Below are positions 1-32,275 of a DNA stretch of 41,843 nt, piece after piece. Every line of letters starts with the position of its first letter. Position 1 is the first letter of the stretch. This DNA comes from an uncultured Methanosarcinales archaeon (GTDB lineage: Archaea; Nanobdellota; Nanobdellia; Woesearchaeales; UBA12501), in NCBI GenBank assembly GCA_964397315.1, contig CAYNHV010000009.1:1-41843 (forward strand), given 5' to 3'. The translations under genes and the position numbers were made by a program. Under the pieces are notes generated by a model that saw only the letters and a list, made by a program, of their open reading frames with translations, did no database searches and was not told where the DNA came from.

Positions 1-89
1 ATGGTCAAATTTTTAGTCTTGAAAATGGCGCATTCGCACTAAAGTGCGAGGTATTAAACCCACTGGAAAATGGCTTTGCGCCATTTTCA
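1..89. repeat. Palindromic REP/MITE-like element, family P (probably cut by the window edge)
   Basis: IR TGAAAATGGCGC...GCGCCATTTTCA with inner hairpin TCGCACT-AA-AGTGCGA; its reverse complement recurs at 32276-32426. Confidence 0.85.
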
Positions 90-632
90 TTAAGAATATT
101 CCAGATAGAGTGCCTCAAAAATCTTAAGATTATTCTCTGCATCTTGTTTATTTGGAAACCCATTATTTCTTAATATATGATTAAACCGTTCTACTATCTC
201 TTTTGGAGATACTCCATGAGAGATAATGATCTCAATATCTTCTTTATCAGGTTCATTTAATCTTGATAGTTTTGTGACTGCATTATCTAACAGGTTTATG
301 ATTTCAACATCAAAATTCTTATATTTCTCTTTATAGATGTCAGAGTCAGTATCAGACGGTAAAGTTGTGCTAAATACATATGGAAAAGGCCACACATCAA
401 CTTTTAGTCTTTCTGGAAGTCTATTGAGATACGCTTTGAGTTTTTTTATATCAATATCTTTCACCATGAAATCAAAATCTTTTGTTGAAATCTTTAAGTT
501 TCTTAAGACAAGAGAAGTTCCTCCAACTGCAATTAATGTAAACTTGATTGAAGGAGCTTCTAAATCATTCTTAATCTCTTTGTCAAGTAATTCAAAGAAT
601 TCATCAATCCTTCCCTTATCAAGTCTTTGCAT
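90..632 (-). CDS. Nucleotidyltransferase, DUF6036/AbiEii-like (type IV TA toxin-like)
   Basis: VGGTSL...STKDFDF motif and C-terminal KLSR..DKEDI; GGTGA RBS before ATG 632; overlaps upstream partner; AT-rich. Confidence 0.7.
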   Translation of the reverse strand: MQRLDKGRIDEFFELLDKEIKNDLEAPSIKFTLIAVGGTSLVLRNLKISTKDFDFMVKDIDIKKLKAYLNRLPERLKVDVWPFPYVFSTTLPSDTDSDIYKEKYKNFDVEIINLLDNAVTKLSRLNEPDKEDIEIIISHGVSPKEIVERFNHILRNNGFPNKQDAENNLKIFEALYLEYS

Positions 633-1332
633 GCTTCTCACCATATAATTCAAAATAATTCCTGTAATCATCCAGCTTATTTAAGGTATAGATATTCCAT
701 TTTCTGCTTATATCGTCCTGCTCTATTAGATTAAATATTTTTTTATACCTTTTATCTCTTAATATTCTGATATTATCCTTATTTTTTTCTAAAGATTTGA
801 TAAACTCCTTAAATTCTCTTGAAGGAGAATAATTCTGGACAATATCAAAGATATAGCCCACAAAGTTTATTATTCCATTATCAATTGCAAATTGATGAAT
901 CTCAAATAAATCTATCTTATCCCTATTATTTAAGATATATACCGGAAGCAAATCAGCAATTCTTGTATCAATCTCCTGGTAATTCTCAAATATTTTCTTT
1001 ATAATCTCTGTTGGCGGTATAACCTTCTCTTTAGAAAGCTTATAACCAATCAGCTCCATATCTGACTTTTTGTAACAGGATATGATTAAATCTAATAATT
1101 CTTTTTTTGTTTCTTTATGCTCATAAAGGTTTTTAAGATTTATGTGGCTTAGAAGAACTACAGCTTTGATTTTATCTTTTATTGCATTAGAAAGATAATT
1201 CTTTTCAGTCTGGCTTAATTTCTTGTTTTCAAGCCTTTTTATCAATACTCCAAACTGCCGGTCAGTAAATAGGGAGGGAACTATTAATGACTTGATTCTC
1301 TTTAACTTGGTTTCATATAGACTTTTGTTCAT
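619..1332 (-). CDS. Putative antitoxin/regulator partner of the nucleotidyltransferase (AbiEi-like)
   Basis: 237-aa ORF coupled to the NTase; C-terminal half resembles 1484-2152 (IDLFEI..A....IN..G / RKWN.....DD.R). Confidence 0.55.
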   Translation of the reverse strand: MNKSLYETKLKRIKSLIVPSLFTDRQFGVLIKRLENKKLSQTEKNYLSNAIKDKIKAVVLLSHINLKNLYEHKETKKELLDLIISCYKKSDMELIGYKLSKEKVIPPTEIIKKIFENYQEIDTRIADLLPVYILNNRDKIDLFEIHQFAIDNGIINFVGYIFDIVQNYSPSREFKEFIKSLEKNKDNIRILRDKRYKKIFNLIEQDDISRKWNIYTLNKLDDYRNYFELYGEKHAKT

Positions 1333-1446
1333 CTAAATCACCCATGCATGTACCTTTTATTACTATAACTATTGTAATAGTTACTAATATATAAATATTT
1401 CGTTCTTTATTATCATAGCCCTTTAAAAATCAGTAAATAAAACAAA

Positions 1447-1483
1447 ACATTTATATACTTCTTATTATATCAATTGATATAAT
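1447..1483 (+). promoter_or_regulatory. TATA box plus perfect 20-bp palindromic operator
   Basis: ACATTTATATA, then ATTATATCAATTGATATAAT (1464-1483) abutting ATG 1484. Confidence 0.65.
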
Positions 1484-2152
1484 ATGACAAGAACACCTAA
1501 CCTGGCCACAATAAGCATGATAAGGGACACTATAAGGGCCCAAAATAGAGAATTCTCTGTCTACCAGCTCTGGAAGGCCCTGCCCAGGAAGATGATGTAC
1601 CAGACCTACAAAAAGGCAATATCCTACCTTACAGAAAGGGGCGAGATAATCACAGACAGCAATGGAAAGATAGCATATATGAAGATAAAAACAAAACACA
1701 AGCAAATAATGAGGAATGACATACTCAGAAGCCTCTCACATTACGGCTATGACCTCATAACCAAAGAAAAAGTCAGGGCCAGTATAATCCCCCTCCCAGA
1801 CCTTATCATAGAGATACTGCTGAGGTTCCCTGAAGCAAGGCTCATAGAGGCAATACCCTTAATTCTAACAAAAAACAGCATTGACAAGTTTGAGCTGTAC
1901 AGAAAAGCATACAAGAATAACCTGATCAATGAGATTGGATTCCTGCTTGATATTGCAATGAAGCTGTCAAAGAAGCTGGATCTTAAAGAACTGCTGGAAG
2001 AGCTTAAGAAGCAGAAGCAGAAAAACATCAGATACCTCACATCAATAAAGGACAGGGAATTCCTTGAGAAGAGGACTCCTGCAATAATGAGAAAATGGAA
2101 TCTCAGAGGACTGTTCTCAATAGATGACTTCAGGAAAGAGGCTTACATATGA
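1484..2152 (+). CDS. wHTH-containing antitoxin-like protein
   Basis: N-terminus (TPNLATI...QLWKALPRKMMYQT) resembles 12346-12618; C-terminus resembles 619-1332. Confidence 0.6.
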   Translation: MTRTPNLATISMIRDTIRAQNREFSVYQLWKALPRKMMYQTYKKAISYLTERGEIITDSNGKIAYMKIKTKHKQIMRNDILRSLSHYGYDLITKEKVRASIIPLPDLIIEILLRFPEARLIEAIPLILTKNSIDKFELYRKAYKNNLINEIGFLLDIAMKLSKKLDLKELLEELKKQKQKNIRYLTSIKDREFLEKRTPAIMRKWNLRGLFSIDDFRKEAYI

Positions 2153-2234
2153 TAACAAGAAGTCATGGCCTGGCTCTGATGAGCAGCTTGAAAGCAATTT
2201 CAGGCTCATCCTGAAAGAATTCTTTAAAGGATGA
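2149..2234 (+). pseudogene. Internally deleted partner (toxin NTase-like) remnant
   Basis: ATGA-coupled start MITR joined out of frame to a C-terminal piece SWPGSDEQLESNFRLILKEFFKG*. Confidence 0.55.
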
Positions 2235-2399
2235 TATAACCTGATCATTCTTGTCCATCACCGCCATCTCTCCCTGTGCCGCGCCTGGCCCCTTCTTAAA
2301 ACTAATAATAACTGATGCCGCTGCCTCAGAAGGCTGGAAAGATTCTGTGGGTTTCAGGGATATAAAAGACCGGCTTACATCTGCTGTCAGACATTTTAA

Positions 2400-2624
2400 T
2401 CAGCCATGAAGATATTTCTCATCAATTCCTGCTATCTCCTTGTAATGATAGTATATGACAAAAAGCACAGAGGATATGACACCAATCACCAAACCATAAA
2501 GTATCTTCATTATTGAATCATTCCAGATGCCAATGATAAGGTAAATCATTGATGCTGCATAAACTATAATGGTGAATAATCTAAGATAAGGGAGAACAGT
2601 CCTGGCATCCTTTATCTTTCCCAT
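2400..2624 (-). CDS. Small two-TM membrane protein
   Basis: Two hydrophobic segments; 74 aa from MGKIK. Confidence 0.6.
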   Translation of the reverse strand: MGKIKDARTVLPYLRLFTIIVYAASMIYLIIGIWNDSIMKILYGLVIGVISSVLFVIYYHYKEIAGIDEKYLHG

Positions 2625-2655
2625 GAACCTGCCTACTGTTACATCATTTATAAAA

Positions 2656-2958
2656 TTATTGCGGGATCTCAACAACAATATGCTTTCCCTTCACTTTCAG
2701 ATTTACTTCCTTTCCTTTCTTCAAACCCAGAGCTTCTTCAACACTCTTAGGCACTCTAAGAATCAGGTTGCTTCTTACCCTGCCCAGCTTAACCTTGATT
2801 GACTCTTTCTTAAGCTTGTTAAGGAGAAGTATCCTCTGGGCCTGTTTTGGATCAAAGTAGACCTCTCCGCAGGAGCACTTCCAGCCGTCAATCTTATAAT
2901 TATTGAAATCAATTCCCTTAACAAATTTCATCTTCCCTGAGCATTTATGGCATTTCAT
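2656..2958 (-). CDS. Zn-ribbon (YgiT/MqsA-type) plus AbrB/MazE antitoxin-like protein
   Basis: CxxC...CxC motif, then SNLILRVPKSV..ALGLKKG AbrB motif; ATGA overlap with upstream gene. Confidence 0.75.
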   Translation of the reverse strand: MKCHKCSGKMKFVKGIDFNNYKIDGWKCSCGEVYFDPKQAQRILLLNKLKKESIKVKLGRVRSNLILRVPKSVEEALGLKKGKEVNLKVKGKHIVVEIPQ

Positions 2959-3209
2959 TTTCGGGTGAACCTTCCGAAGTGTATGAGTATCCACACATCT
3001 TCCCTGTCATGATGGCTCTTTGCAATGACTGCATTGTATGTTTTCCTTCCCTTATCAAGCCATTTCTCGCTCTTTCCCCTGCCTCTTTTTCTTGGAGCAC
3101 CATAGCCCCTCTCAAGCACCTCTGCAGCATGAGCAAGTGTCCTGCCCTGCTTCATGAGATCCCTCATTGCAGAGGCTGAAGGGACTATCCTGAGGCCCTT
3201 GTACCTCAC
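2955..3209 (-). CDS. Small basic toxin-like protein (DUF4258/RelE-fold-like); start uncertain
   Basis: Basic ~85-aa ORF ending WILIHFGRF, coupled to the antitoxin-like gene. Confidence 0.55.
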   Translation of the reverse strand: MRYKGLRIVPSASAMRDLMKQGRTLAHAAEVLERGYGAPRKRGRGKSEKWLDKGRKTYNAVIAKSHHDREDVWILIHFGRFTRK

Positions 3210-3512
3210 ATCCAGCGTATTTAGGTGGAGTATGTTAATAACAAATGTATATAAATCTTTCGCTTTCATGCAGAATAACAGCAAGGAAATCTTTATATGC
3301 CTTTGTAAGAAGAAACCGGAGAATCTTCAGCCAGCAAAGGAATAACTCCGGAAAGAAAACAATCATACCGGAAATCCTGCCAAAAGACTTAAAAACAAAG
3401 CATTATTTCTGTAATGCATGGGAAACCACTCCAAAAGGATACCATAGGAACATCAGTGCTGCTCAGGTGCCTGGCAAGTGCCTTCAGCAGGGGATGTCCG
3501 GAGGTATCCAGA

Positions 3513-3803
3513 ATGGTGTCAAAGAAAGACAGAAGAAGGAGTGGCTATATTACACCAAGAGCAACTGTTTCTAAGAAAGAGTTGATAAGATATAATCTGT
3601 TTATAACCCCTTTCTATGATGACTGGGAGGATTACAGGGACAGTCTCAGGGACTGGTACAGTGATTTCAAGACAATAAAAAATCCTGATCCATGTGCTCT
3701 TCCAAAAAACATGTACTGGAAAAGAATAAGGATGAATAAGAAGCAGAAAAAGCTTCTGAAAAGAAGGCAGGCAAAGAGATGCAAAAGAAAACTCAGAATG
3801 TGA
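3513..3803 (+). CDS. Basic hypothetical protein
   Basis: GGAGGT RBS before ATG 3513; FYDDWEDYRD motif. Confidence 0.65.
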   Translation: MVSKKDRRRSGYITPRATVSKKELIRYNLFITPFYDDWEDYRDSLRDWYSDFKTIKNPDPCALPKNMYWKRIRMNKKQKKLLKRRQAKRCKRKLRM

Positions 3804-3911
3804 TGGTCTTGTTGTTCTTCCGCTTTATCCGGAGCTTGTCACTGGTCACTGAACATGTGTGGCCAATATGTTTATATAGCTAAACCTCTGGATTCTGAAG
3901 GTTCCGGAAAA

Positions 3912-4139
3912 ATGACAATAAAACATAGAACATGCTCTATAAGAATATCATTCCTGAACATTGGCTGGGAAAGCAGAATCTCCCGGAAAAGATCCACATT
4001 GAGCATCTCCATCAACAAGCTTGTTGCAATAGGGTCCTGCCTGAAGAAAGGCCAGACAATATACTGCTATCTTGCTGAGGATATGCAGAAAAGGCCTGTA
4101 ATGATAGCATACCTTGATGGAAAAGAGAGGGATCCATGA
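3912..4139 (+). CDS. Hypothetical protein, possible AbrB-like fold
   Basis: TLSISINKLVA..LKKGQ.IY pattern; TATA-like TTTATATA upstream. Confidence 0.5.
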   Translation: MTIKHRTCSIRISFLNIGWESRISRKRSTLSISINKLVAIGSCLKKGQTIYCYLAEDMQKRPVMIAYLDGKERDP

Positions 4140-4144
4140 CCACA

Positions 4145-4185
4145 ACATTTATATATAACCTACCAATAGTATCAATTGATACTAT
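4145..4185 (+). promoter_or_regulatory. TATA box plus perfect 20-bp palindromic operator
   Basis: ACATTTATATA, then ATAGTATCAATTGATACTAT (4166-4185); same TATCAATTGATA core as 1464-1483. Confidence 0.65.
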
Positions 4186-4201
4186 CAATAGTATAATTAA
4201 A

Positions 4202-4801
4202 ATGCTTACAAGAACACAAGAGCAGATACTGGCATTTTTGCTGGCCAATCCTGAGCAGAAGCCAACTATCAGGGGAATCTCCAAAAGACTGGGAAAGTCA
4301 TACACTCTTATCTACAACAATATCTCTGATCTGGAAGAAAAGGATATCATCAGGAAGCAGGATGTGCCTCCTGCCCAGATAATCTCTCTGAACAGATTTG
4401 CTCCAAGAGATATCCTTATTGATATTGAATTGAAGATAAGAAGGCAGTTCCTTAAAGAGAACTCCTGGGCAAAAGTCATGCTCAAGGATATCCTGTCAGC
4501 AGTTAAGAGTCATTTTTTCATACTGGTTATATTTGGATCATATGCAAAAGGCACTCAGTCAAAGGGATCAGACATTGATATTCTGGCTATTGTCCAGGAT
4601 AAGAGGGATGCAAAAGAGATAGAGCATGCAGTGAAGAAAGCATACACTAAAGCAAGAAAAAGCCTTAATATTGTTGACATAAATGATCTTAGAGAGATGA
4701 TGAGGGATACAGATGAGCTTAACATCAGCAATGAGGCAAAGAAACACCATATAATTCTGCATGGTATTGAATCATATTATCAGATAGTCAGAAGAGAATG
4801 A
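4202..4801 (+). CDS. wHTH plus minimal nucleotidyltransferase (MNT) antitoxin
   Basis: FGSYAKG...SDIDIL motif; N-terminal HTH; likely start MLTRTQ. Confidence 0.85.
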   Translation: MLTRTQEQILAFLLANPEQKPTIRGISKRLGKSYTLIYNNISDLEEKDIIRKQDVPPAQIISLNRFAPRDILIDIELKIRRQFLKENSWAKVMLKDILSAVKSHFFILVIFGSYAKGTQSKGSDIDILAIVQDKRDAKEIEHAVKKAYTKARKSLNIVDINDLREMMRDTDELNISNEAKKHHIILHGIESYYQIVRRE

Positions 4802-4919
4802 AGATAGAAGAGCTTATAAGGTAACTCCAGATGTAGAGGAATATAATGCAAGAAAGGCAATAGACACTTCAGAGGAGTTTATCAGCACAATAAGGCAGTT
4901 GATGGCCAATAAATACTGA
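4798..4919 (+). pseudogene. HEPN toxin remnant (internal deletion)
   Basis: ATGA-coupled MKIEELIR*; other frame gives a HEPN-like last helix VTPDVEEYNARKAIDTSEEFISTIRQL; no Rx4H segment left. Confidence 0.6.
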
Positions 4920-5009
4920 TTCTGCACCCGCAAAAACATACGTCATAGTTATATAAACAAGCAGTTTTCATAATAAGATCTGAGAAAAAACAAATGAGAT
5001 GGTGATAGC

Positions 5010-5465
5010 ATGAAGCTCGGAGAAGCATTAAGCAGACTAAAGAAAGACAAGAGCAAACTGGCAAGACTGATCTCTCTGAGAAAAGAGAATGCATACATAG
5101 AAGAAGGAAAAAAGACAAGATTTGATCCAAAAAAAATGTCAGAAGAGATAGACAGGAAGATTGAAGATATAAGAAAACAGAAGATCCTGATACAGAAGAC
5201 CAACCTAAACAACATGGTTTCCGGAGAAAAGATAAGCCTTGCTGAAGCTATAATCAAGGTCAATGACTTAAGAAGCAGGATAGCTCACTTAAGCGGGTTA
5301 TCCGAGAAGAAAGAGATATACACATCACGGGACAATGACAGGAATATGGTGGCCCAGTTGGACGAACTTGAAGTAGAGGATGAGATAGAGAAACTGGAGA
5401 TTGAGAAAGTTCAGCTTGACAATAAGATCCAGATAACCAACTGGACAACAAGACTGAGTGATTAA
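5010..5465 (+). CDS. DIP1984-like coiled-coil protein
   Basis: MKLGEAL start, IQKTN, SLAEAI and LDNKIQ..NWTT.L motifs; GGTGAT RBS. Confidence 0.75.
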   Translation: MKLGEALSRLKKDKSKLARLISLRKENAYIEEGKKTRFDPKKMSEEIDRKIEDIRKQKILIQKTNLNNMVSGEKISLAEAIIKVNDLRSRIAHLSGLSEKKEIYTSRDNDRNMVAQLDELEVEDEIEKLEIEKVQLDNKIQITNWTTRLSD

Positions 5466-5466
5466 G

Positions 5467-5695
5467 CTTATCTGTCCAACAGATAAGAGGCTGGTAGGTC
5501 TGGAGGTAAGCATGGGAAGCAGGTTTGTCCAGCCTCAAATCAAATGATTTGTTATTGGATAATGCCTGCGCGATGCCAAGATCGAACTGATGAGATGTGA
5601 TGCCTTACAGATAAATGATTAAAGATTACTGTTTAAGGATCACAGCTCAAGGATCATATACCTGTGCTTTTCCTCCAGCTATCAGCATTTTTTAT
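5467..5695 (+). ncRNA. Candidate structured RNA downstream of the DIP1984-like gene
   Basis: 5490-5516 pairs with 5661-5686 (~24 bp including G-U); 9-bp hairpin 5467-5487; T-tract follows. Confidence 0.5.
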
Positions 5696-5858
5696 TCAGC
5701 ATATTCCATAAAATAACATGGTTAATTCTCAAAACCCCAATTCCTCTTCAAAGAAACACCAAACCACAACCTGGCCTCAGAAAGGTCCAGGCCATTATGG
5801 AGGTTTCGCCTGCTTTCTGGGAACAGTGACATATTTCATAAAAGAATGAGCTGCCTCA

Positions 5859-6182
5859 TCACCTTATCTTCAATGCCTTCATGATCTTGTCAAGCTTCAT
5901 GTTTATCATTGCTATGTCTTCCTGTGTCACGCCCTGCTTCTGGCCTCCAGAGCCTTCTTTTTTCCTGTAACAGTCACTGCAGTACACCGGCTTGCTGCTT
6001 GTGGGCCTGAACGGAACCTCGCATTGCTCTCCGCAGCTGTCGCAGACCACCCTGTGCATCTCCAGCCTGCCTGAGTCCTTTCTGTCGGGCCTTGAGTTCC
6101 TGCCAGCCTTTCCTGAGGCTTTCCTGCCTGGTTTTGAATCCCTGCTGAATGATTTCCTGTTTTTTCCTTTGCGTTCTCCCAT
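5859..6182 (-). CDS. CxxC-x17-CxxC domain protein
   Basis: CDSC...VPFRP...PVYCSDC. Confidence 0.9.
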   Translation of the reverse strand: MGERKGKNRKSFSRDSKPGRKASGKAGRNSRPDRKDSGRLEMHRVVCDSCGEQCEVPFRPTSSKPVYCSDCYRKKEGSGGQKQGVTQEDIAMINMKLDKIMKALKIR

Positions 6183-6686
6183 CTGGCACAGGAAATTGAA
6201 CCCCTTTATAAACTTATGGTAAAAGCTGCTTCTTTCAGGAGATAGAACTATTCCGGAGATTCCCTGAGAGATGAGTGTATTCAGGAGCAGGTATTTTTCT
6301 CACAAAATCCTATACTGGTTCAGTGCTGTCGGAATCTTCTCCTACAAGGCCATCAAAACCCCCTTTTCCTGCATCCTTTGCAGGATCTTGACATGGAACC
6401 GGGGTTCTTCATGAAAAACCCCTCAAACTTGTTTTGAGAAATCTGTCGGAATAATGCCAGACATTGTCAGTCTTTTCCACACCAATAAAATCATTTATGC
6501 CATTATCCCAGAATACGCCCTTTTTTCAGAAAAGCAAGATTCGGGATTATGCCGAATAAAAAACAAACTAAAAATTTTAGGCAAAAAAAGGCGTTTTCAG
6601 AGGATACAAACCCCTTCTGAGAGTGAAAATGGCCTTATTTGGCCTGCATCTAATTCTGCTATAAACCTTTAATCAAAAACAGAAGT

Positions 6687-7016
6687 TTATGCTGACTTTT
6701 TGGTGTCTTCAAGCTCTCTCTCACATCCAGGAGTGTAGAGTATCCCTACCATCTCATGATTCCTTATCCTGTACTCAAGCCTGCCCACATTGGCTCAGTT
6801 CTCATCAACAACAAAGAAGGGCTCGCAGCAGATATCCAGCATCCTGTTCACATGCTCTCTTGTCAGGTTATCTCTGGAGCTGCAGAGAGACACCACATGA
6901 TAGTTTTTTCCGGCAAGCTGGCTGAGATCAAGCTCCTCCTGGGTCAGGTAATCTATGAAAGATGGCTTGTACCTCTCCTCCACAACCCCCAGGAAGTCCC
7001 CAAATCTGAGCATCAT
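6687..7016 (-). pseudogene. Hypothetical gene interrupted by one in-frame TGA
   Basis: Frame continues past the TGA at 6795-6797 for 35 codons with typical codon usage (ANVGRLEYRIRNHEMVG...KKSA*). Confidence 0.5.
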
Positions 7017-7183
7017 CCAATATACGCATTCCTGTTATATAAATTTTCTCCCACACCCTCGCTAAAACTTTTAATCAACACTAAAAGATTTATGTCCTCA
7101 TTAAAGCAATTGTCGGCAAAATCCCAAAGACTTAAAAAGGATAATGCAGGAATAAGGCACACAAGGAAATACCAGAACAGGAG

Positions 7184-7735
7184 GTGATCAGGTTCAAACA
7201 CAGCAAAATAGTCCTTACACATGCAGAGCCTGGAATGAATCCAGGAGCAGACGAGCTGGCCAGCGTGATAATGGCAAGGATAGGCCTGCTTCCAAGAAAG
7301 AAGGGCTCCACAACAAGGATGCACAACATACTCCTGGAGCTTTACGAGAGGGCAAAACAAGCCTACAGGAAGAAAAGGCCTGAGATGGCTGTCATGACAG
7401 TTGAGGACATGGGTGATTTTGCCGGAATAAGCAGGCAGACAATGTATGATTACCTCAGCAGGTGGACAGAGCTCGGGCTTATAGTGAAGACGAGCTTCAT
7501 AAGCGAGGGAAAGGTTGTCATAGGCTACAAGCTCAATGGAAACACGCTGGAGCAGGCCTTCCAGAAGTCAGTCTCGCAAATCCAGGAAAACCTTAACACA
7601 ACACAAGGCCTCATAAGAGAGCTGCAGAGAAGTGTTAAGAATGAGAAGATCAGGGAAAAGCAGGGCATGAACCAGGCTGACAAGCGGGACTCTGGAGTAT
7701 CAGAATCTAACCAGGAACATTCAATAGAAGCTTAA
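7184..7735 (+). CDS. Winged helix-turn-helix protein with C-terminal coiled coil
   Basis: MTVEDMGDFAGISRQTMYDYLSRWTELGLI HTH followed by a beta wing (VVIGYKL); GTG start given by ORF track. Confidence 0.8.
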   Translation: MIRFKHSKIVLTHAEPGMNPGADELASVIMARIGLLPRKKGSTTRMHNILLELYERAKQAYRKKRPEMAVMTVEDMGDFAGISRQTMYDYLSRWTELGLIVKTSFISEGKVVIGYKLNGNTLEQAFQKSVSQIQENLNTTQGLIRELQRSVKNEKIREKQGMNQADKRDSGVSESNQEHSIEA

Positions 7736-8005
7736 AATTTTTTGTCATTATTTCTTTGTTCTGTTATTTTAACATATTATTGTATGGAAAAGTATCATTC
7801 TGAAGGTATTAAAAATTCCGAATGTTGTCGTAGTTTAACAAGAACCAGACAATACAAAATACCCTATCGCTGTCGGAATAATACAGACCTACAAAATCCA
7901 GACAGTTGTCGGTAAAAAACCAGAATCAAAAGGATTTCCAGGACAAAATGAGTGGGTGTCGGGAAGATACCGAATGGATACATCCTAGCTGCTGCATCCT
8001 TCAAA

Positions 8006-8460
8006 ATGCTTATAGCACCAACCCACAGAGCACTTTAAGCATATGATTGGGAGGGCTTATCTGAAGCAGGAGCTGGGAGTTGAGCTGTTTTGGAATGTGT
8101 GAACCTGCTGGGTGGTTGTGCAGAAAGGGAGGGAAGTACTATGATTAAAAGCCCCTCTAAGTGTTTTGATTAATCCAGACTTAACCACCGCCCTTATCAC
8201 AGTTACAGATGGACAAAGCCCTCCCGCCTCCCCCTCACATATGCTTAGCGCACCAACTCCACAGAGCACTTTAAGCATATGATTGGGAGGGCTTATCTGA
8301 AGCAGGAGCTGGGAGTTGAGCTGTTTTGGAATGTGTGAACCTGCTGGGTGGTTGTGCAGAAAGGGAGGGAATTACCAGGATTTATTATCACAAACAAACC
8401 ACCCTAAGGAGGGAATTACCTGGAATCACAATCATAAACCTGTTATCATAAGAAGCACCA
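8006..8460 (+). repeat. Repeat family R, locus 1 (two tandem cores plus ~45-bp tail units)
   Basis: 8023-8135 identical to 8259-8371 (period 236); homologous to loci at 15.4, 25.0, 32.1 and 41.8 kb. Confidence 0.9.
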
Positions 8461-8562
8461 GCAATACCCTAAACAAGCCAAAATGAGTGGTTGTCGGAAT
8501 AATCCCCTAAACCAGTTCAGACAGAAAAACTTTATATAATCAGCACCAAATGAGAGCCTCCC

Positions 8563-9546
8563 ATGGACCCTTTATTCGCCCTGCTGGTGTTCATAGCAGG
8601 AATAATACTCCTCGTCAAGGGAGGTGACTGGCTCATAACCAGCGCCTCAGTAATAGCGAGAAAGTTAAGGGTCTCGCCCCTCATAATAGGCCTGACAGTT
8701 GTGTCAATAGGCACATCCCTCCCAGAGCTTTTTGTGGCAATATTCGCAATCCTTGGCAACACTCCTGACATCTCAGTGGGCAACATAGTGGGCAGCAACA
8801 TAGCCAACATAGCCCTTGTAATAGGCGTTGCAGCTCTCATACAGCCGCTGGTGATAAGGGAGAAGACGCTCCTGTACGAGTTCCCTTTCCTGCTTGTGTC
8901 AAGCTTCCTCCTGCTTGTTCTCTCAAATGACAACAACATATTTCAGGTCAGCACATTCACCATAGGAAGGTTTGACGGGCTCATTTTCCTGCTCACCCTC
9001 ATATTCTTCACAGGCTATGTTTACAAGAGCATGAAGACGCAGAGGGAGAAGAAGGTTGAGAAGGAATTCAAGGAGGAGTTCGGCAGGGGAGAGAGGAGGA
9101 TACACAAGAGAGTCATATTCCTCTTTGTGGGCATAGCCTCACTTGTAATAGGTGGAAAGCTTCTTGTGGCATCAGCAGAGGATCTTGCCCTTACCCTCGG
9201 CCTGTCAGAGAAATTCGTGGGCCTGACAATGGTTGCCCTGGGAACATCGCTTCCAGAGCTTTTTGCCACTGGAGTGGCGGCATTCAAGAACCAGCCTGAC
9301 ATTGCAGTGGGGAATGTGGTTGGCAGCAGCATACTCAACATACTCTTTGTCCTGGGAATAAGCGGGCTCGCAATCCCTTTCAGCATGTCAGCCTCTCTTG
9401 TCCATGTTGACATGGTCATAATGACAGCAGTAACATTCATGTTCCTCGTCTTTGCGATAACAGGAAGAAAACTTGAGAGGCATGAGGGAGGAATACTCCT
9501 GGCAGGCTACATCGCATACATAGCATATCTTGTCATGGCCTTATGA
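8563..9546 (+). CDS. Ca2+/Na+ antiporter (YrbG/NCKX family)
   Basis: Two alpha-repeats GTSLPEL...GN.VGS; about 10 TM segments. Confidence 0.95.
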   Translation: MDPLFALLVFIAGIILLVKGGDWLITSASVIARKLRVSPLIIGLTVVSIGTSLPELFVAIFAILGNTPDISVGNIVGSNIANIALVIGVAALIQPLVIREKTLLYEFPFLLVSSFLLLVLSNDNNIFQVSTFTIGRFDGLIFLLTLIFFTGYVYKSMKTQREKKVEKEFKEEFGRGERRIHKRVIFLFVGIASLVIGGKLLVASAEDLALTLGLSEKFVGLTMVALGTSLPELFATGVAAFKNQPDIAVGNVVGSSILNILFVLGISGLAIPFSMSASLVHVDMVIMTAVTFMFLVFAITGRKLERHEGGILLAGYIAYIAYLVMAL

Positions 9547-13032: not shown

Positions 13033-13722
13033 TCAGGCTCTTATACCGCATACATCTGAGAGAACACAACCACTACATTCAGGCCTGCTCCTGCAGTGCC
13101 TCTTGGCGTGCTCAACAATAAGCGCATGGTACTCCCTGAAGATTTCAACTCTCTTCTTTTCCTTGATACGGCCAAGCTCTTTCATGAAGAGCTCCTGTAT
13201 CCCGTCGTATGATGAATTCTTGCCAAGCAGGCCGAGCCTTGAGAAGATCCTCCTTGTGTATGCGTCAACAACAAAATAAGGCCTGCCAAAGGCATACAGC
13301 AGTATGGAGTCTGCTGTCTCAGGGCCTATCCCTTTCACAGAAAGAAGCTCCTCTCGGGAAGGGATTGTTTTATCATCAAAATGCCTGGAAAAATATCCTG
13401 CAAGCAGCTTCAGCCGCTCTGCCTTCTGGTTGAAGTAGCCCGCGGGCCTGACAAGCTCTGCAATTTTGGAGACAGGCGCCTTTCTAATCCTCTCAATCCT
13501 TATCAGCTTCTGCCTGTTAAGGTTCTCAATGACCCTCTCAACATTCTGCCATGAAGTGTTCTGGGTCAGAACTGCTCCAACTATTATCTCCCATCTGTCA
13601 TGGTCTGTCTGGGGCTGGCCATTGTGATGCCTTGTCTTCAGCCTTCCTTTTGATAATGGCCACCAGCCCTGCGGGCCGTAGGATTTGTGCAGTAGCTTAT
13701 AGACTTGATTAACCATGCTCAT
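13033..13722 (-). CDS. HhH-GPD endonuclease III-related DNA glycosylase
   Basis: GPQGWWP, AVLTQNTSW, GIGPETADSILLY, VVDAYT, C-terminal Cys cluster. Confidence 0.93.
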   Translation of the reverse strand: MSMVNQVYKLLHKSYGPQGWWPLSKGRLKTRHHNGQPQTDHDRWEIIVGAVLTQNTSWQNVERVIENLNRQKLIRIERIRKAPVSKIAELVRPAGYFNQKAERLKLLAGYFSRHFDDKTIPSREELLSVKGIGPETADSILLYAFGRPYFVVDAYTRRIFSRLGLLGKNSSYDGIQELFMKELGRIKEKKRVEIFREYHALIVEHAKRHCRSRPECSGCVLSDVCGIRA

Positions 13723-14424: not shown

Positions 14425-14508
14425 TTAAATTTTTGGTTTTGCTGGCCACCAGCCCTGCGGGCCGTAGGATTTGTGCAGAGCCCCATAGACCTTAACTGCC
14501 TTGTTCAT
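14425..14508 (-). pseudogene. Duplicated 5' fragment of the endonuclease III-like gene
   Basis: MNKAVKVYGALHKSYGPQGWWPAKPKI* versus MSMVNQVYKLLHKSYGPQGWWP. Confidence 0.8.
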
Positions 14509-15049: not shown

Positions 15050-15800
15050 GTTTCACTTCTCCCTGTTCAGAGTTATGTTCAGGCCGGCCAGGGAGGTAAT
15101 GTAAAACTGATAATTTTTCCAGAGTTTACCGCCGCCCTCTTTAGAGTTACAACCGCTTTGTCCCGCCTAAAAATAATCCCGACTCGCAAGCTTAAATATA
15201 ATTCCGACTGAAGTCGAAATTATAAGACTTGCCTAAGCTTCGCTTAGTCAAGCGTCTGGGATTACTGAAAATACAAAGTATTTTCAGGCCTGCAAAACTT
15301 TGTTTTGCAGTATTAGAATTGCCAAACTTTGTTTGGCAATCTCCTCCCCCACACACAACCTGAGAGCACCAACTCCATAAGCCCCAAGCGCACCCAAGCA
15401 AATTTATGGGCAGGGCTTATTAGAGGCAGGAGCTGGGAGTTGTGCTTTTCCAGAAGGTGCGAGCTTGTGAGGTGGTTCTGCAGTAAGGGTGGGAAGTACT
15501 ATGATTAAAAGCCTCCCCTAAATATTTTGGTTAATCCAGACTTAACCACCGCCCCAGCCGCAGTTACATATGGATAAAGCCCTCCCGCCACCCCCCCACA
15601 TATGCTAATTGCACAAACACCAACCAGAGCGCACCTGAGCAAATTACTGGGCAGGGCTTATTAGAGGCAGGAGCTGGGAGCTGTGCAGACTTAGAAGAAA
15701 GTAACCTGCTGTTTGGTTGTGGAAAGGGGGAGGGAAGTACCTGGAGCTATCAGCATTAACCCAAAATCACAGGGAAGAATCCTGAGCTGCCAATACCAGG
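15050..15800 (+). repeat. Repeat family R, locus 2 (two cores, first interrupted by a hairpin block)
   Basis: GGGCTTATTAGAGGCAGGAGCTGGGAG at 15413 and 15654; linker TAATCCAGACTTAACCACCGCCC as at locus 1. Confidence 0.85.
15170..15340. repeat. Array of short perfect hairpins
   Basis: CTGAAAATAC-aaa-GTATTTTCAG, CTGCAAAAC-ttt-GTTTTGCAG, ATTGCCAAAC-ttt-GTTTGGCAAT, CTAAGC-ttc-GCTTAG. Confidence 0.85.
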
Positions 15801-17001: not shown

Positions 17002-17166
17002 GCGGAGGTGCCGGAGCGGTCAAACGGGACAGATGGCCTGACCAGGATCAAGGCGAGTCCAAGCTTAGGTTGACCATAGGCGGAAGGGTGTGATGAGCCT
17101 TTTGGCTGTGATTTTAAGACACCTGTTGGCTTAGTGCCTTCTGGGGTTCAAATCCCTGCCTCCGCA
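17002..17166 (+). tRNA. tRNA-Leu(TAG) with introns 17033-17062 (30/31) and 17070-17120 (37/38)
   Basis: Acceptor GCGGAGG/CCTCCGC-A, D stem CCG/CGG, spliced anticodon stem ACAGG/CCTGT with loop CT-TAG-GA, long variable arm, TTCAAAT loop; both introns have BHB-type 4-bp helices. Confidence 0.9.
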
Positions 17167-17498
17167 TTAATTCTTCCATTTCAGAGACAGTGTTTGGNNN
17201 NNNNNNNNNNNNNNNNNNNNNNNNNNNNNNNNNNNNNNNNNNNNNNNNNNNNNNNNNNNNNNNNNNNNNNNNNNNNNNNNNNNNNNNNNNNNNNNNNTTG
17301 CGCAGCAAACGTCCCACTTAGCGTTGCGTGTCAACTGAGCGTAACCAGTTGCGGGGGTTCAAATCCCTGCCTCCGCATTAATTCTTCCATTTCAGAGACA
17401 GTGTTTGGTCGTGGGACTTTGCGCAGCAAACGTCCCACTTAGCGTTGCGTGTCAACTGAGCGTAACCAGTTGCAGGGGTTCAAATCCCTGCCTCCGCA
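17143..17498 (+). repeat. 121-bp tandem repeat carrying the tRNA 3' end (spans an assembly gap)
   Basis: GGGGTTCAAATCCCTGCCTCCGCA three times; period 121 between last two copies; N gap 17198-17297. Confidence 0.85.
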
Positions 17499-17669
17499 TT
17501 TAATTTCTTTTTTAGCGTCTCTAAGTATAATAAGAGGTTATAAAAGCTTTATAAGCTTATAGGACATCTAAAAAACCTTAATGCGCTTTTTGGACTATTA
17601 TAATTGGATTCCTGCTCTTTAAGGCCTCCAAAAGTATTTATATAGTCCCTCATATGATAGTACCTTGAT

Positions 17670-17961: not shown

Positions 17962-20400
17962 ATGAAAGTAAAGAAAGCAATTAAAGCGATTGCAGCTTTA
18001 GGCGCAGGAATTTCTATGGTCGGAGCCACTCTTATGGGTGCGATGGCAGCAGATCTGTCAAACTACCCGTCTCCGTTCGTGAAGAACGGAACATTTGATG
18101 GCCTGATTGTAGTTGGAGATGACGCAGCTGCACAAGACGTAGTGGGAGCGATTGACGTTGGAGCAAGCCTTCAGTACGCAATGAGGCAGGAAGCCCAGAT
18201 GGGCACAGGACTGCCTGCAGTGACAATAAGTGAAGGAAAGAAGATAGAGAAGACAGGAAACAACCTGAACTATGGTGACTCGTTCTATGACATCATAGAA
18301 GTGCTGGATGACGAGGATCTTCCTGTTATCCTGGCAGACGAGCAATACCAGGACTCAGAAGGAGAGACAACCAACAAGGAGGATTACAAACAGACCCTGA
18401 GATTCTACGACAACACAGGAACCCTAGTGTTTGAGGCTGACGATGATGGTGATGAAGTGGCTGACAACTATCTGTTCTTTGACGACGGAGTGGATGCATA
18501 CAACTACAGCCTTGAGTTTGACAGCTCAGTGGAGTACACCACCACTTCCTCTGACACACCAGCAGAGGATCTTGAGGACACTGTGCTGACAATACAGGGC
18601 AATGAGTACACCATAACAGACATCAAGTATGACACCACCACCTATGCCATAGAGAAGATAACCCTGCTTGCTGGCGAGACAATCATCTGGCTCCAGCAGG
18701 GAAAGACACTGACAAGAAGCATAGGAGGAGCTGAGCACGAGGTTGAAGTCACAGACGTGAACGACAATGAGAACATGTGCGGAGTGTCTGTTGACGGAGA
18801 TGTTGTGTGGATTGATGTAGGACAGACACAGACCATCAACGGAGTCACAATAGGAGTGACAGACGCTGTTGCAGTGCACGCGCAGCTTCAGGACGTTGAC
18901 ATCTGTAAGATCAATGTCGGAGCAACAGAGCTTGTGCTTGAGGATGGCAAGGATGTTGAGATGAATGGTGACGACATTGAGGACAGCAATGTTGAGTTCT
19001 TCGGAAATCTTACAGGAGGAGAGCTTGACGGAATCAGCATCCAGTGGCAGCCAGAGGATGACGAGTACATTGCAGATGGCTCAAGCCTTCAGGATCCTGT
19101 GTTCGGAAACTTTGAGTTCAAGTTTGCAGGGGTGTCCAAGAACACAGAGGAGATGTCTCTGACAACATCAAGCGACGATGCAGAGTTCAAGTTTGTCAAC
19201 AATGACGGAAAAGAAGTGGAGATCCCTTACTTCTACTATGAAGATGATGATCAGATCCACCTTGGAACAGATGACATAGAAGACGGAACCTGTGAGGGAA
19301 TGCTTCTGCTTGAAGGAGAGAACTGCGATCTTGGAGCCGGTTATGACCAGGATGACATTGAGGGAGTGATGTTCCTCCTCATAACATCAGGAGAAGAGGC
19401 TCATGTCATGGAAGTGTCAAAGATTGACGAGGGTGACAGTGAGGTAGACCTTAAGGATCTAACCTACAGCAAGACCTATGACGGCAATGACTACACCAAC
19501 GGTTCGGCGAGCGACATCTCACTGGGCTCACTTGGCACAATACAGCTCACCATTGACACAACAGATGGTCAGTTTACTGCCAATGATGTGGACCTTGGAG
19601 TCGGGCATGCAGAGACAAAGTACGGAGCAAAGCTCTACTTCAACTCTACAGGAGGTAACTCCACAATTGGAACAAATTCAAGCAACACCCAGATAGTGAC
19701 AATTGAAGAGGAAGGAGATGACGACAATGAGATGAACTGGTCACTTACCCTGCGTTATGACAGTGGTACAGATGACCAGCTGGAGATAAAAGCTCCAGTA
19801 ATAACCGACGTGAACGCCGCAGGAAACCACTACACCAATGAGGGAGTGTCTGCAAGTGACTCAGACGATGACAACAAGTACTATGTCACTGAATGGGGTA
19901 CACTGGCGCTGTACGACTCTGACAACGACGATGACCTCACCATCTGGTATCCGGATGAGCAGGCATACGGCAACGCATTCGTTGCTCCAGTCGGAGCTCA
20001 GATCAGCGGAAGCAGCGGTGAAGTGTCAACAGTGACTCTGAACCCAATCAATGTGGGTGCTGCAAAACTGGCCAGCGAGGTTTCAGGCCAGGAGACATCG
20101 CAGAACCTCATTGCAGTGGGCGGACCTTGCATCAACGAGGCTGCAGCAGTCGTAATGGGACTTGAATACCCAGCATGCGGCGCTGACTCCACAATACCAG
20201 AGAACAAGGCTATCGTTAAGCTCTATGAGAACGATGGCAATGTTGCAATGGTAATTGCTGGATGGGAAGCCCAGGATACAAGGCTTGCAACAACTGTTGT
20301 CGCTGACTACACTGAGTATGCAGACAAGCTTACCGGAAGCGAGGTTGTCGTGGAAGGAACAAGCGTGTCTGACATAACAGTTAGCGCACCAAGCGAGTAG
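17962..20400 (+). CDS. S-layer protein
   Basis: Signal peptide, ADLSNYPSPF, VVGDDAAAQDVVGAID, C-terminal NLIAVGGPCIN...IAGWEAQDT; very acidic; N-x-S/T sequons; GGAGGTG RBS. Confidence 0.92.
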   Translation: MKVKKAIKAIAALGAGISMVGATLMGAMAADLSNYPSPFVKNGTFDGLIVVGDDAAAQDVVGAIDVGASLQYAMRQEAQMGTGLPAVTISEGKKIEKTGNNLNYGDSFYDIIEVLDDEDLPVILADEQYQDSEGETTNKEDYKQTLRFYDNTGTLVFEADDDGDEVADNYLFFDDGVDAYNYSLEFDSSVEYTTTSSDTPAEDLEDTVLTIQGNEYTITDIKYDTTTYAIEKITLLAGETIIWLQQGKTLTRSIGGAEHEVEVTDVNDNENMCGVSVDGDVVWIDVGQTQTINGVTIGVTDAVAVHAQLQDVDICKINVGATELVLEDGKDVEMNGDDIEDSNVEFFGNLTGGELDGISIQWQPEDDEYIADGSSLQDPVFGNFEFKFAGVSKNTEEMSLTTSSDDAEFKFVNNDGKEVEIPYFYYEDDDQIHLGTDDIEDGTCEGMLLLEGENCDLGAGYDQDDIEGVMFLLITSGEEAHVMEVSKIDEGDSEVDLKDLTYSKTYDGNDYTNGSASDISLGSLGTIQLTIDTTDGQFTANDVDLGVGHAETKYGAKLYFNSTGGNSTIGTNSSNTQIVTIEEEGDDDNEMNWSLTLRYDSGTDDQLEIKAPVITDVNAAGNHYTNEGVSASDSDDDNKYYVTEWGTLALYDSDNDDDLTIWYPDEQAYGNAFVAPVGAQISGSSGEVSTVTLNPINVGAAKLASEVSGQETSQNLIAVGGPCINEAAAVVMGLEYPACGADSTIPENKAIVKLYENDGNVAMVIAGWEAQDTRLATTVVADYTEYADKLTGSEVVVEGTSVSDITVSAPSE

Positions 20401-20409
20401 ACAGCCTAA

Positions 20410-20438
20410 ATTTTTCTTTTTCTTTTTTTCTTTTTCTT
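20410..20438 (+). terminator. Oligo-T archaeal terminator
   Basis: Runs of TTTTTC directly after the S-layer stop. Confidence 0.7.
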
Positions 20439-20779: not shown

Positions 20780-21112
20780 ATGAAGCAAACAAAATGCGAG
20801 GAATGCGGAGGAAAAATAACAAACAAGAAAGTGGACTTCAGCCTCTACGGCCAGAGCCTTGGGAAGTTTCCTGCTGAGGTGTGCTCTAAATGCGGAGAAA
20901 CGTGCTTTTCAGAGGAGGTCAGCGACCAGATAGACAGGATTGCAAAGGAAAAAGGATTATGGGGCCTGGACTTGAGGACAAAGGTCTCAAAAGCAGGAGA
21001 CAGCCTGATGATAAGGATAAACAAGAAGATAGCTGATTTCATGGACCTGCACAAGGGAGAGGAAGTGCGCCTGCATCCAAAAAACAAGAGAAAGCTGATC
21101 ATAGAAATCTGA
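20780..21112 (+). CDS. YgiT-type Zn-ribbon plus AbrB antitoxin-like protein
   Basis: CEECGG...AEVCSKCGE, then GDSLMIRINKKIA. Confidence 0.8.
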   Translation: MKQTKCEECGGKITNKKVDFSLYGQSLGKFPAEVCSKCGETCFSEEVSDQIDRIAKEKGLWGLDLRTKVSKAGDSLMIRINKKIADFMDLHKGEEVRLHPKNKRKLIIEI

Positions 21113-21213
21113 CATGACAGTTAGCGCACCAAGCGAGTAGACAGCCTAAATTTTTCTTTTTCTTCCCCAATCCCAGGATAATATTTATAAATAAGGGCAA
21201 CTCTGTTCCGGAA

Positions 21214-24769: not shown

Positions 24770-25300
24770 ATTGCAACTGCCCTGTTTGTGAGTTCTAAGA
24801 ATGATTTCATTGTAAAAATGGAAATTCATCCAGACTTAACCACCAGAAGCATTACTCAGTTCACGCGCAGGCGGGATTAAGCGCAGCGAAATTCTACAAA
24901 AAGCGCGCTTTAAGCGTTCAAGCACCATGATTAAGGATCTCCTATGCATATCTTGGTTAATCCAGAGTTCTCCACCGCCCCGGTCGCACTTACATCTGGA
25001 TAAGACCCGCCCCCCGTCCCCCTCACACATGCTTAGCGCACCAACTCCACAGAGCGCTTTAAGCATATTACTGGGCGGGCTTATTGGTGGAAGAATGAGT
25101 AAGTTGTGCAGACTTAGAAGGTGTAAACCCACCTTCTGGTTCTGGAGTAAGGGAGGGAAGTACCATGAAAGACCACAAAAAACATAGCTTCCAAAAGGGA
25201 AGCACCAGGCATAACAATCATAAACTCAATATTCCCAAGGAAACACCAGAAATTATTAAGGTAATAAACTTAAGAAAACAAGCACCAGAACTACAAAACC
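24770..25300 (+). repeat. Repeat family R, locus 3
   Basis: ATGCTTAGCGCACCAACTCCACAGAGCGCTTTAAGCATAT core at ~25029; left arm shared with locus 4. Confidence 0.85.
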
Positions 25301-28588: not shown

Positions 28589-28751
28589 TGTCAAAAACCA
28601 CCGGTCAGAGACCGGTGGCATGAAGCGAAAGCTTCATTCTCATTCTTTATTGACCTGTGGTTTTTGAGCATGCTCAGAAATATACCCTCTGCGGATATGC
28701 CTTTGTGGACTTTGTCCACTGGTTAAATAAACCAGTGGTATATTTCTGACA
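28589..28751. repeat. 163-bp bipartite palindromic MITE-like element, copy 1
   Basis: TGTCA...TGACA ends; identical to 33296-33458. Confidence 0.9.
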
Positions 28752-28836
28752 TATAAAAATATTGCGCCCGCTTACTGCGCGCCGCAAAACAACACACCCC
28801 CAAACATTTAAATACCTGAAAAACCATATATTATGT

Positions 28837-31835: not shown

Positions 31836-31974
31836 AGCGCCTGCTTAATTTAAAGTTTTTGATGATCAGAAGCATTAAGAGGGACTCATTAATCCGACGT
31901 GTCATTCCTCACCCCTGACAGACAGAGCTTTGCTGATAAAATGTGGTAATCACTGCCCTTTGGAATGTATGTTT

Positions 31975-32255
31975 ATACTGATAGCTCATGGTACCTCCCA
32001 CCCTTTCTGCACAACTATTTAGCAGGCTTACACCTTCTGGAAAAGCACAACTCTCTGCTTCTGCCTCCAATAAGCCCACCCCTTAATTTGCTTAAAGCGC
32101 TCTGTGGAGTTGGTGCGATTAGCATATGCGAGGGGGACGGGGGGAGGGAAAAATCAGGGTGTAAAGCAAACAGGGCGGAGGAGAACTCTGGAGGAATTCC
32201 CCTCTTTACAATGAAATCATTCTTAGAACTCACAAACAGGGCAGAGGCAACACCA
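31975..32255 (-). repeat. Repeat family R, locus 4 (reverse orientation)
   Basis: GCTTAAAGCGCTCTGTGGAGTTGGTGCG is the reverse complement of the core; 32205-32245 matches 24775-24815. Confidence 0.85.
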
Positions 32256-32275
32256 GGAAGATCCATTATCTTTAT

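Follow-up and report, generated by a model that had tools for sequence, protein, structure and literature searches.

Ss-LrpB of Saccharolobus solfataricus belongs to the Lrp/AsnC regulators and is a dimer with a ligand-binding RAM domain. It binds cooperatively to several regularly spaced palindromic boxes at its own control region and acts on neighboring targets. The heat-shock regulator Phr of Pyrococcus combines a winged helix with a long coiled-coil dimerization helix and represses its own promoter via a palindrome near the TATA box or the start site. In phage lambda, the gene of the CI regulator lies between the operator clusters OR and OL; the proximal operator serves autoregulation, and distant operators loop. 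Clustered sites beside the gene of their binder are also a feature of SegB, AspA, ParB/parS, WhiP/oriC3, and Orc1 with its origin recognition boxes (ORB), among which AspA and WhiP are single-gene winged-helix binders that lack an AAA+ domain. The locus described here consists of a gene for a 183-amino-acid (aa) protein and an array of near-palindromic boxes around this gene. It lies on contig CAYNHV010000009.1 (assembly GCA_964397315.1) of an uncultured archaeon deposited as Methanosarcinales and placed by GTDB in the Woesearchaeales; the whole stretch of 41,843 nucleotides (nt) that was analyzed is called the window. The protein is probably a sequence-specific, homodimeric winged-helix transcription factor confined to Woesearchaeota-type DPANN archaea, with the boxes as its operators and with its own gene controlled through them, auxiliary operators included.

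Compared with Ss-LrpB, the 183-aa protein has no Lrp match, and its boxes are more numerous, lie on both sides of the gene, and extend over a far longer module. Phr shares the long-helix winged-helix architecture and the palindrome at the own promoter; however, it is not among the 39 printed Foldseek rows (ranks 1–46), and its gene has no multi-box array. The CI arrangement is that of a bacterial phage system with an unrelated fold, and for the present locus looping is something we infer. Iteron-type Rep systems have tandem direct repeats at a fixed period and a Rep protein with two winged helices; the boxes here are near-palindromes at irregular spacings (117, ~50, ~45, then 555 nt) and the protein has a single winged helix. 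The ArsR, MarR, and Lrs14 types, exemplified by AbfR2 (6cmv) and the archaeal structures 1sfx and 2d1h, share the winged-helix fold (Foldseek E 4e-3 to 5e-3, probability ~1.0), the homodimer prediction, the palindromic site at the own promoter, and the ArsR-like language-model neighbors. However, no Pfam family of these types exceeds its cut-off, the TM-scores on the query are 0.25–0.38, these regulators have no counterpart of the conserved N-terminal segment or of the 50-residue C-terminal helix, and the 183-aa family is isolated in profile searches. By its modeled fold, the protein is a candidate member of the ArsR/MarR/Lrs14-like superfamily of winged-helix regulators.

The box motif and its conservation at orthologs

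The hexamer TGTCGG makes up the left and stronger half of the near-palindrome TGTCGGnATnATnCC(G)A(C)A. In the complete box of 17–19 bp, it is followed by an ATnAT core and by a right half that is weaker. A position weight matrix (PWM), for which 215 TGTCGG sites from ortholog flanks were aligned and then refined, has the consensus tkTCGGnATwATnCCraaa, with TGTCGGnATnATnCCGACA and TTCGGnATnATnCCGAA as idealized forms; the core GGnATnATnCC is self-complementary. A first-pass annotation of this DNA, made from the sequence alone, had listed TGTCGG at 6327, 6444, 7111, 7871, 7907, 7957, and 8492, usually followed by an A-rich spacer and a degenerate inverse half. All seven are present on the + strand, and spacer and inverse half reappear as parts of the near-palindrome with its self-complementary core. 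Two variants listed there hold up as well: the one at 6539 is the most symmetric box of the window (box E, core TTCGGGATTATGCCGAA at 6540–6556), and the one at 7826, which reads TGTCGT, is TGTCGG at the same place in four of five aligned related loci (L001, L003, L004, L005).

Over the whole window, TGTCGG occurs 13 times on both strands (12 on +, 1 on −), against 6.3 ± 2.6 in dinucleotide shuffles. Eight of the + strand copies fall within 6083–8497, namely the seven above and one at 6083, which is inside a zinc-ribbon open reading frame (ORF; 5859–6182, − strand). In 500 first-order Markov simulations, the fullest 2415-bp span held 2.0 copies on average and never more than 7. The 15-mer pattern TGTCGGNATNATNCC has five window matches with at most one mismatch, all in 6444–8506; with at most three mismatches there are 47, where 25.5 ± 5.1 are expected and none of 100 shuffles reaches 47. 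Matrix scores of at least 13.8 are found at 6325, 6442, 6537, 7109, 7869, 7905, 7955, and 8490, and elsewhere in the window only at 32306 and 38526.

The clustering recurs at orthologs. A scan of species-representative genomes gave 113 confirmed relatives, the best 80 of which were kept as loci L001–L080. TGTCGG has a density of 1.44 per kb in the 1 kb on either side of the gene (216 copies in 150 kb) and of 0.30 per kb further out (142 copies in 466 kb); this hexamer count serves as the independent measure because the matrix was trained on these same flanks. The matrix itself gives 397 hits with a score of at least 14 in the 80 loci, as compared with 7 in shuffled loci; perfect two-sided palindromes are scarce among them (4 of 397). 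The hit density is 4.7 per kb at −500 to −250, 2.95 at −250 to 0, and 3.7 in the first 250 nt 3′ of the gene, with a tail to about −2000, sparse hits upstream of −2250, about zero beyond +750, and none inside the gene. At least one box is found in 77 of the 80 loci and at least three in 64 of them, the median being five; 50 of 76 loci have one to four boxes in the 100–250 nt that follow the stop codon. TGTCGA or TGTCGT variants are present in the three loci without a hit, in one case as a promoter composite followed by TTTAAAAAG. Clustered sites beside a candidate binder gene, which the first-pass annotation had seen in the window, are accordingly found with the same consensus at the orthologs and are nearly absent a few kb away.

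One box has a fixed place at the promoter. The promoter-proximal box TGTCGGCAAAATCCCAAAG (7111–7129, + strand, PWM 18.9) is the presumed operator of the regulator gene, and its sequence and position are kept in the listed loci. It is followed by a TATA-like element, CTTAAAAAG (7131–7139, + strand, identified by eye), which starts 20 nt after the TGTCGG at 7111 and lies 45–53 nt before the GTG of the regulator gene. Across the loci, a TATA-like heptamer stands 16–24 nt after TGTCGG (mostly 19 or 21) in 26 of 32 proximal boxes, as compared with 29 of 362 others. In many loci, as judged by comparison of the sequences, box and TATA form a composite ATnATnCCGACA-nn-TGTCGGnATnAT. A box set against the own TATA box is the classic layout of an autoregulated transcription factor. 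The alternative that the box is itself the TATA box or the transcription factor B recognition element (BRE) was rejected, as a separate canonical TATA box lies ~20 nt further on.

Most of the upstream boxes of the window belong to a conserved non-coding multi-box module (6282–6636, + strand), which aligns with 21 modules of other loci. In the resulting alignment of 22 sequences (A2), column identity averages 54% and 33 columns are invariant. Modules are ~350–450 nt long and contain four to five boxes each. In the window, the module contains the word CCTATACTGGT (6309–6319) and box A, TGTCGGAATCTTCTCCTAC (6327–6345, + strand, PWM 13.9), continues with a 98-nt conserved spacer ending in ACCCCTCAAACT (6418–6429), and then features boxes B to E and AATAAAAAACAAACTAAAAATTTTAGGCA. 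Box B, TGTCGGAATAATGCCAGAC (6444–6462, + strand), has no mismatch to the pattern (PWM 21.0). A weaker box C/D is found on the − strand at 6494–6515 and reads GCCATTATCCCAGAATA on the + strand (PWM 10.9); it corresponds to a column block kept in A2. Box E scores almost equally in both directions (PWM 21.3 on +, 21.9 on −) and is the most conserved block of the alignment. The spacing from A to B is 107–117 nt in 19 of 20 box pairs collected, the exception being L016 with 123 nt, and boxes C, D, and E follow B at about 30, 19, and 45 nt. Conservation extends to non-box words, namely CCTATACTGGT, ACCCCTCAAACT, and TAAACTAAAAnTTTTAGGCA. An A-rich, TATA-like tract, AATAAAAAATAAAC, follows box E in most modules, and A-rich tracts also follow the stop codon of the gene; the conserved A-to-B spacer is not AT-rich.

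The placement of the module varies: it lies directly upstream of the gene or further off with variable ORFs in between, and is occasionally inverted or downstream. Variable ORFs between module and gene occur in many loci, and 17 of 21 have no Pfam family. A single metagenome-assembled genome holds three copies of the regulator gene with a module (L001 and L002 on JAWOBY010000046.1, L004 on JAWOBY010000044.1); since each of the three copies has its own module, gene and module duplicate as a unit.

The 183-aa protein

The regulator gene has a GTG start and extends over 7184–7735 on the + strand. Its protein has 440 homologs with E ≤ 1e-3 among 482 candidates. Identity is 56–81% among the 120 matches listed, its own entry aside, and the closest relatives are labeled Woesearchaeota, Nanoarchaeota, or Nanobdellota. 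Complete genomes with the gene include CP010425.1, OY970338.1, and OZ246410.1. A 30-member profile searched against 1.84 billion proteins yielded 57 representatives at 50% clustering, 44 of them with E ≤ 1e-10. Because the profile search gave only these 57, the regulator family is regarded as compact and isolated. Fused or longer forms are absent among the 57 profile hits, the longest of which has 286 aa, and a second copy in the window was rejected, the other ORF of 183 aa (40151–40702) being unrelated (E 0.099).

The only Pfam match is PF13545 HTH_Crp_2, at 27.2 bits against a cut-off of 27, and the NCBIfam scan gave no model match. Remote homologs match HTH_5, HTH_20, and TrmB, all below threshold. 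Sequence comparison with solved structures yielded nothing meaningful (best E 0.15, to unrelated proteins). Language-model neighbors outside its own cluster are ArsR-like archaeal clusters. A full-text literature search found no description of protein, motif, or locus. A 2026 preprint on Nanobdellota genomes lists a winged helix-turn-helix (HTH) regulator, which may or may not be the present family, among phylum-specific markers (10.64898/2026.05.13.725050).

The AlphaFold2 model (predicted local distance difference test, pLDDT, 77) features a poorly defined N-terminus, a strand and a helix, a winged helix-turn-helix, and a long helix of residues 122–170. The first-pass gene call, a winged helix-turn-helix with a coiled coil, agrees with this architecture. 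The winged-helix elements are helices 73–80 and 84–97 and the hairpin of strands 100–107 and 110–117, with a pLDDT of 85–93 there. The top Foldseek matches are all winged helix-turn-helix regulators (TFE-alpha, AbfR2, ST1889, MarR, and ArsR types) with E 4e-3 to 2e-2 and probability ~1.0. One winged helix is present in the model, and neither Pfam nor the model gives an AAA+ domain.

The putative recognition helix GI[ST]RQTMYDYL and the wing residues are invariant in 30 aligned homologs. In the putative recognition helix and wing, these are R84, Q85, T86, M87, Y88, Y90, L91, R93, W94, K102, S104, G114, and Y115. An invariant recognition helix matches an invariant box, which is counted in favor of the protein as the binder of the boxes.

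A two-copy model features a symmetric interface via residues 5–33 and 121–154, with a score of 0.82 against 0.14 for the best control. The mark used for this score is reached by 20 of 30 proteins solved as one-chain pairs and by 1 of 23 solved as single chains, a calibration that holds only roughly here, the model having been made with its own alignment. At least 98% of the contacts are shared between runs, with a partner pLDDT of 80 or more. The model supports a homodimer and stops short of showing one.

Probable autoregulation and alternative readings

The operator at the promoter ends where the BRE and TATA box of the protein's own promoter begin, and its occupancy should therefore control the recruitment of TFB and TBP to the gene. 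Autoregulation would most likely proceed by occlusion and hence repression, with activation as a possibility. The upstream module of four to five boxes and the one to four boxes just past the stop codon would act as auxiliary sites. These may raise the local occupancy and let bound dimers bridge, so that a cooperative nucleoprotein complex could form around the gene. Genes between or beside the boxes may be under the same control, namely the small ORF at 6795–7016 and perhaps a Na+/Ca2+ exchanger gene downstream. The protein as binder, the sign of regulation, and the looping are suggested by co-location, symmetry, and position.

Several observations weigh against this reading. The link between protein and boxes is drawn from co-location. 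A matrix hit of at least 14 at −150 to −15 of the longest ORF start is found in 44 of 78 loci, a number that is low partly because ORF starts are overcalled. In the 24 loci where a convergent HTH gene bounds the 3′ flank, matrix boxes are present there in 18, away from promoters. The boxes are oriented ~2:1 along the gene direction (177:87 upstream, 63:37 downstream), a bias that a symmetric dimer does not require. The second, convergent HTH protein, found in 40 of 80 loci, could bind some of the boxes, though it is absent from the window. Few other targets are seen, and a conserved non-coding module of ~350–450 nt with non-box words exceeds the needs of a simple operator.

The first-pass annotation had interpreted the locus as an origin with its initiator or as a centromere with its binder. 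Comparison strongly supports the part of this interpretation that pairs a regulator gene with its own clustered sites, and lends none to the function as origin or centromere; both functions stay in consideration because initiators and centromere binders also autoregulate. More generally, it is a rather unlikely though serious option that the gene and the ~350–450-nt module are a cis-acting chromosomal element, either an origin or a segregation or organizing center, specific to the Woesearchaeales lineage and run by a single non-AAA+ winged-helix protein that ranks among the most conserved of these reduced genomes. The promoter box would then merely couple the protein level to the occupancy of the element. 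The option is kept because a simple operator model does not account for boxes between convergent genes or for so long and conserved a module.

An unlikely specific form of such an element is a chromosome-organizing or segregation site. The box array would be centromere-like or a loading site, the protein would be an adaptor that coats or bridges DNA like ParB/parS, SegB, or AspA, and autoregulation would be a by-product. Many sites lie on both sides of the regulator's own gene, and a site cluster near the binder gene is what partition systems have. In addition, some boxes are situated between convergent genes away from promoters, spacings of about 100–117 nt recur, protein and sites are very strongly conserved, and few sites are found elsewhere in the 655 kb of loci. 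However, ParABS, SegAB, and AspA systems have a partition ATPase gene next to the binder gene, and no such gene is conserved nearby here: within ±5 kb, a ParA-like ORF with a deviant Walker A motif occurs in that one locus, ~4 kb off, and no ATPase is among the recurrent neighbors. Moreover, the proximal box has the position of an operator with respect to TATA, the place of the module relative to the gene varies, inverted and downstream modules included, and one metagenome-assembled genome holds three gene-plus-module copies.

The boxes might also mainly control unannotated small transcripts from the module and the 3′ flank, either small RNAs or leaders for the variable downstream genes, which is very doubtful. 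The TATA-like tract after box E and the mostly family-less variable ORFs between module and gene are in line with this. However, TATA-like heptamers follow only the 29 of 362 non-proximal boxes given above, and the module shows no conserved secondary structure, no Rfam match, and, by eye, no conserved small ORF in the spacer. As a structured RNA, the module was rejected with an RNAalifold energy of −0.88 kcal/mol and 8 pairs, 1 of which is compensatory. Known RNA families were likewise rejected: Rfam gave none at gathering scores over the whole window, and matches with E up to 10 on 5800–8700 are chance-level and fall in the dispersed repeat or in coding DNA. ARAGORN found no tRNA in the window. 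A small conserved ORF in the A-to-B spacer was discarded after inspection of A2 by eye, where indels are not in threes.

Least probable is a lineage-specific replication origin, by analogy with WhiP at oriC3 of Sulfolobus, in which the boxes would be recognition elements, the protein a non-AAA+ initiator or co-factor, and the proximal box a means of initiator autoregulation. A long conserved non-coding module with repeated boxes and no RNA fold beside a regulator gene, the A-rich tracts after box E and after the stop codon, and the joint duplication of gene and module would suit an origin, as would weak echoes of the DnaD N-terminal winged helix (Foldseek rank 36, E 0.019; one remote homolog matches PF21984 below its cut-off, E 6e-4). 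However, GC skew, which the first pass had named as a check, has no consistent switch at the locus: the right side exceeds the left in 16 of 38 loci (mean difference −0.02, p 0.23), and AT skew has no switch either, in tests that cover 4–5 kb per side in genomes for which the presence of skew is unsettled. In the window, the cumulative skew changes with gene orientation, and none of its extremes falls at 6–8.5 kb. Genes converge on the locus: of the coding DNA, 64% is on the + strand to the left of it and 44% to the right (n = 31, p 0.017). This direction is opposite to that expected of an origin with co-oriented genes, although the loci are not independent because of their shared synteny. Within ±5 kb, 0 of 80 loci have a P-loop ORF of 280 aa or more that is Orc1/Cdc6-like, the three candidates being SRP54, MoxR, and a rhodanese-AAA_22 protein, and no Orc1/Cdc6 is among the window ORFs scanned. 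In addition, the boxes appear unlike the canonical ORB, the conserved A-to-B spacer is not AT-rich, and WhiP/Cdt1 proteins carry a tandem pair of winged helices where the 183-aa protein has one.

Surroundings of the locus

With the dimeric autoregulator as the preferred reading, the rest of the locus can be described from left to right. The regulator gene is flanked on both sides by a second conserved palindrome, box 2 (consensus GCTTAAAAnTTTTAAGC), with one copy ~50 nt upstream of the proximal box and another overlapping the stop codon. Box 2 reaches 3.9 per kb over the 100 nt that follow the stop and 1.9 per kb at −200 to −100, as compared with 0.04 per kb far away. In the window, a degenerate copy marks the module end (6658–6674, repeat family D2). 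The upstream copy GCTAAAACTTTTAATC (7061–7076) matches TTAAAANTTTTAA with at most one mismatch, as does no other place in the window. The downstream copy GCTTAAAATTTTTTGTC (7730–7746) is degenerate and overlaps the stop TAA (7733–7735); L001, L003, and L005 have GAAGCTTAAAAGTTTTTAGC. In other loci too, box 2 closes the module and shares its position relative to the proximal box. The AT-rich stretch at 7735–7800, noted in the first pass, begins with this second conserved palindrome; a conserved unwinding element did not emerge from the comparison. Box 2 over the stop codon may explain the …EA* ending that many homologs share in an otherwise hypervariable C-terminal tail (alignment A1). Box 2 as the ends of a mobile cassette was rejected: it flanks an inserted small ORF here (6658–6674 and 7061–7076), but not consistently elsewhere.

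This small ORF of 73 aa (6795–7016, − strand), situated between module and regulator gene, is lineage-specific, matches no Pfam or NCBIfam family, and is unrelated to any ORF of the 80 loci. Upstream, at 7035–7050, it is preceded by a TATA-like TTATATAA. An in-frame TGA is followed by 35 open codons (6689–7016, − strand); the ORF may be a pseudogene or reflect a sequencing error or read-through.

Downstream of the gene, a four-box array (7826–7975, + strand) consists of the boxes at 7826 (the TGTCGT variant), 7871, 7907, and 7957, and is matched box for box in L001, L003, L004, and L005. It is followed by two dispersed non-coding repeat units of ~236 nt each (7987–8450, + strand), which are separate from the box system and make up much of the 827-nt downstream spacer. 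The last box, TGTCGGAATAATCCCCTAA (8492–8510, + strand), has no mismatch to the pattern (PWM 21.2) and starts 39 nt before TTTATATAA (8531–8539), the TATA box of the Na+/Ca2+ exchanger gene (8563–9546), which was identified by PF01699 (8.5e-64). Its left flank (8474–8506) is a 79% copy of the flank of box 7957 (repeat family D4). The unusually long spacers remarked on in the first pass are real and have three causes, namely the module at 6282–6636, the small ORF at 6795–7016 on the − strand, and the repeat units at ~7987–8450.

Recurrent ORF families near the gene in other loci are PAC2 (22 loci), the second HTH protein (40 of 80), a methyltransferase (21), and RpoL (18). The second HTH gene encodes ~177 aa with an N-terminal coiled coil and a C-terminal winged helix and is convergent, ~200–650 nt downstream on the opposite strand. 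The word CTCTCACTTTT recurs after its stop, on its own strand, sometimes in several copies. This protein is a candidate binder of box 2. In the window, tblastn found no copy of it in 41.8 kb. The window is archaeal in content, with ribosomal proteins S8e and L44e, an LSm protein, GINS, and an S-layer protein. Its first part (1–5500) has a low GC content of 0.28–0.42 and carries defense or toxin–antitoxin-like genes (a DUF6036 nucleotidyltransferase, a MazE-like protein, a winged-helix–nucleotidyltransferase fusion, and DUF6847); the regulator locus borders this variable region, unlike the PAC2/RpoL neighborhood of many other genomes.

The dispersed repeat is present at 7987–8450, 15340–15770, 24920–25225, 31967–32148 (− strand), and 41650–41843 (− strand), with one or two units of ~236 nt per site, 61–94% identity between copies, and stops in all frames. 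Its fold is a consistent long hairpin whose closing stem is CCC.CCC/GGG.GGG (−25 kcal/mol for 4 copies, only 2 pairs being compensatory), and it has only a weak match in the nearest related locus, L001. It could be an element like a miniature inverted-repeat transposable element or a new small RNA family. The boxes as parts of this repeat were not upheld: box-like inverted half-sites stand beside the copies at 15165–15230 and 32306–32345, but not at 24920. These half-sites (ATCCCGAC … GTCTGGGAT) belong to a block that also has short CAAAC-n-GTTTG hairpins, at 15165–15335 and 32267–32426 beside two repeat copies, and positions 1–98 are an inverted copy of 32267–32426 (55 nt at 100%, 45 nt at 93%). 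A box-like TGTCAGAAATATACC lies inside a 170-nt direct repeat (99% identity; 28589–28758 and 33296–33465) in two intergenic regions 4.7 kb apart.

Further repeats lie apart from the regulator locus. At 17143–17529, three tRNA-like 3′ ends (GGGGTTCAAATCCCTGCCTCCGCA) and two 82-nt repeats (99%) surround a scaffold gap of 100 N (17198–17297). Neither ARAGORN nor Rfam calls a tRNA there; the ends may belong to intron-containing or unusual tRNA genes or reflect an assembly problem. A 57-nt repeat (98%) at 20368–20424 and 21108–21164 covers the 3′ end of the S-layer gene and recurs 740 nt later, and a 66-nt repeat (80%) at 13657–13722 and 14443–14508 marks the 5′ ends of two minus-strand genes.

DPANN archaea are mostly uncultured, and their gene regulation and chromosome organization are almost unstudied. 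The present locus offers a protein–DNA pair that can be read from sequence: a compact, unnamed, conserved regulator and a precise near-palindromic site. A non-coding module kept across many species is rare for archaeal intergenic DNA. As an autoregulatory switch, the locus would be unusually elaborate, and the variable genes inside it may be interesting cargo; were it an origin or centromere instead, its type would be new to archaea. With the box motif, the regulon can be sought in complete Woesearchaeales genomes.

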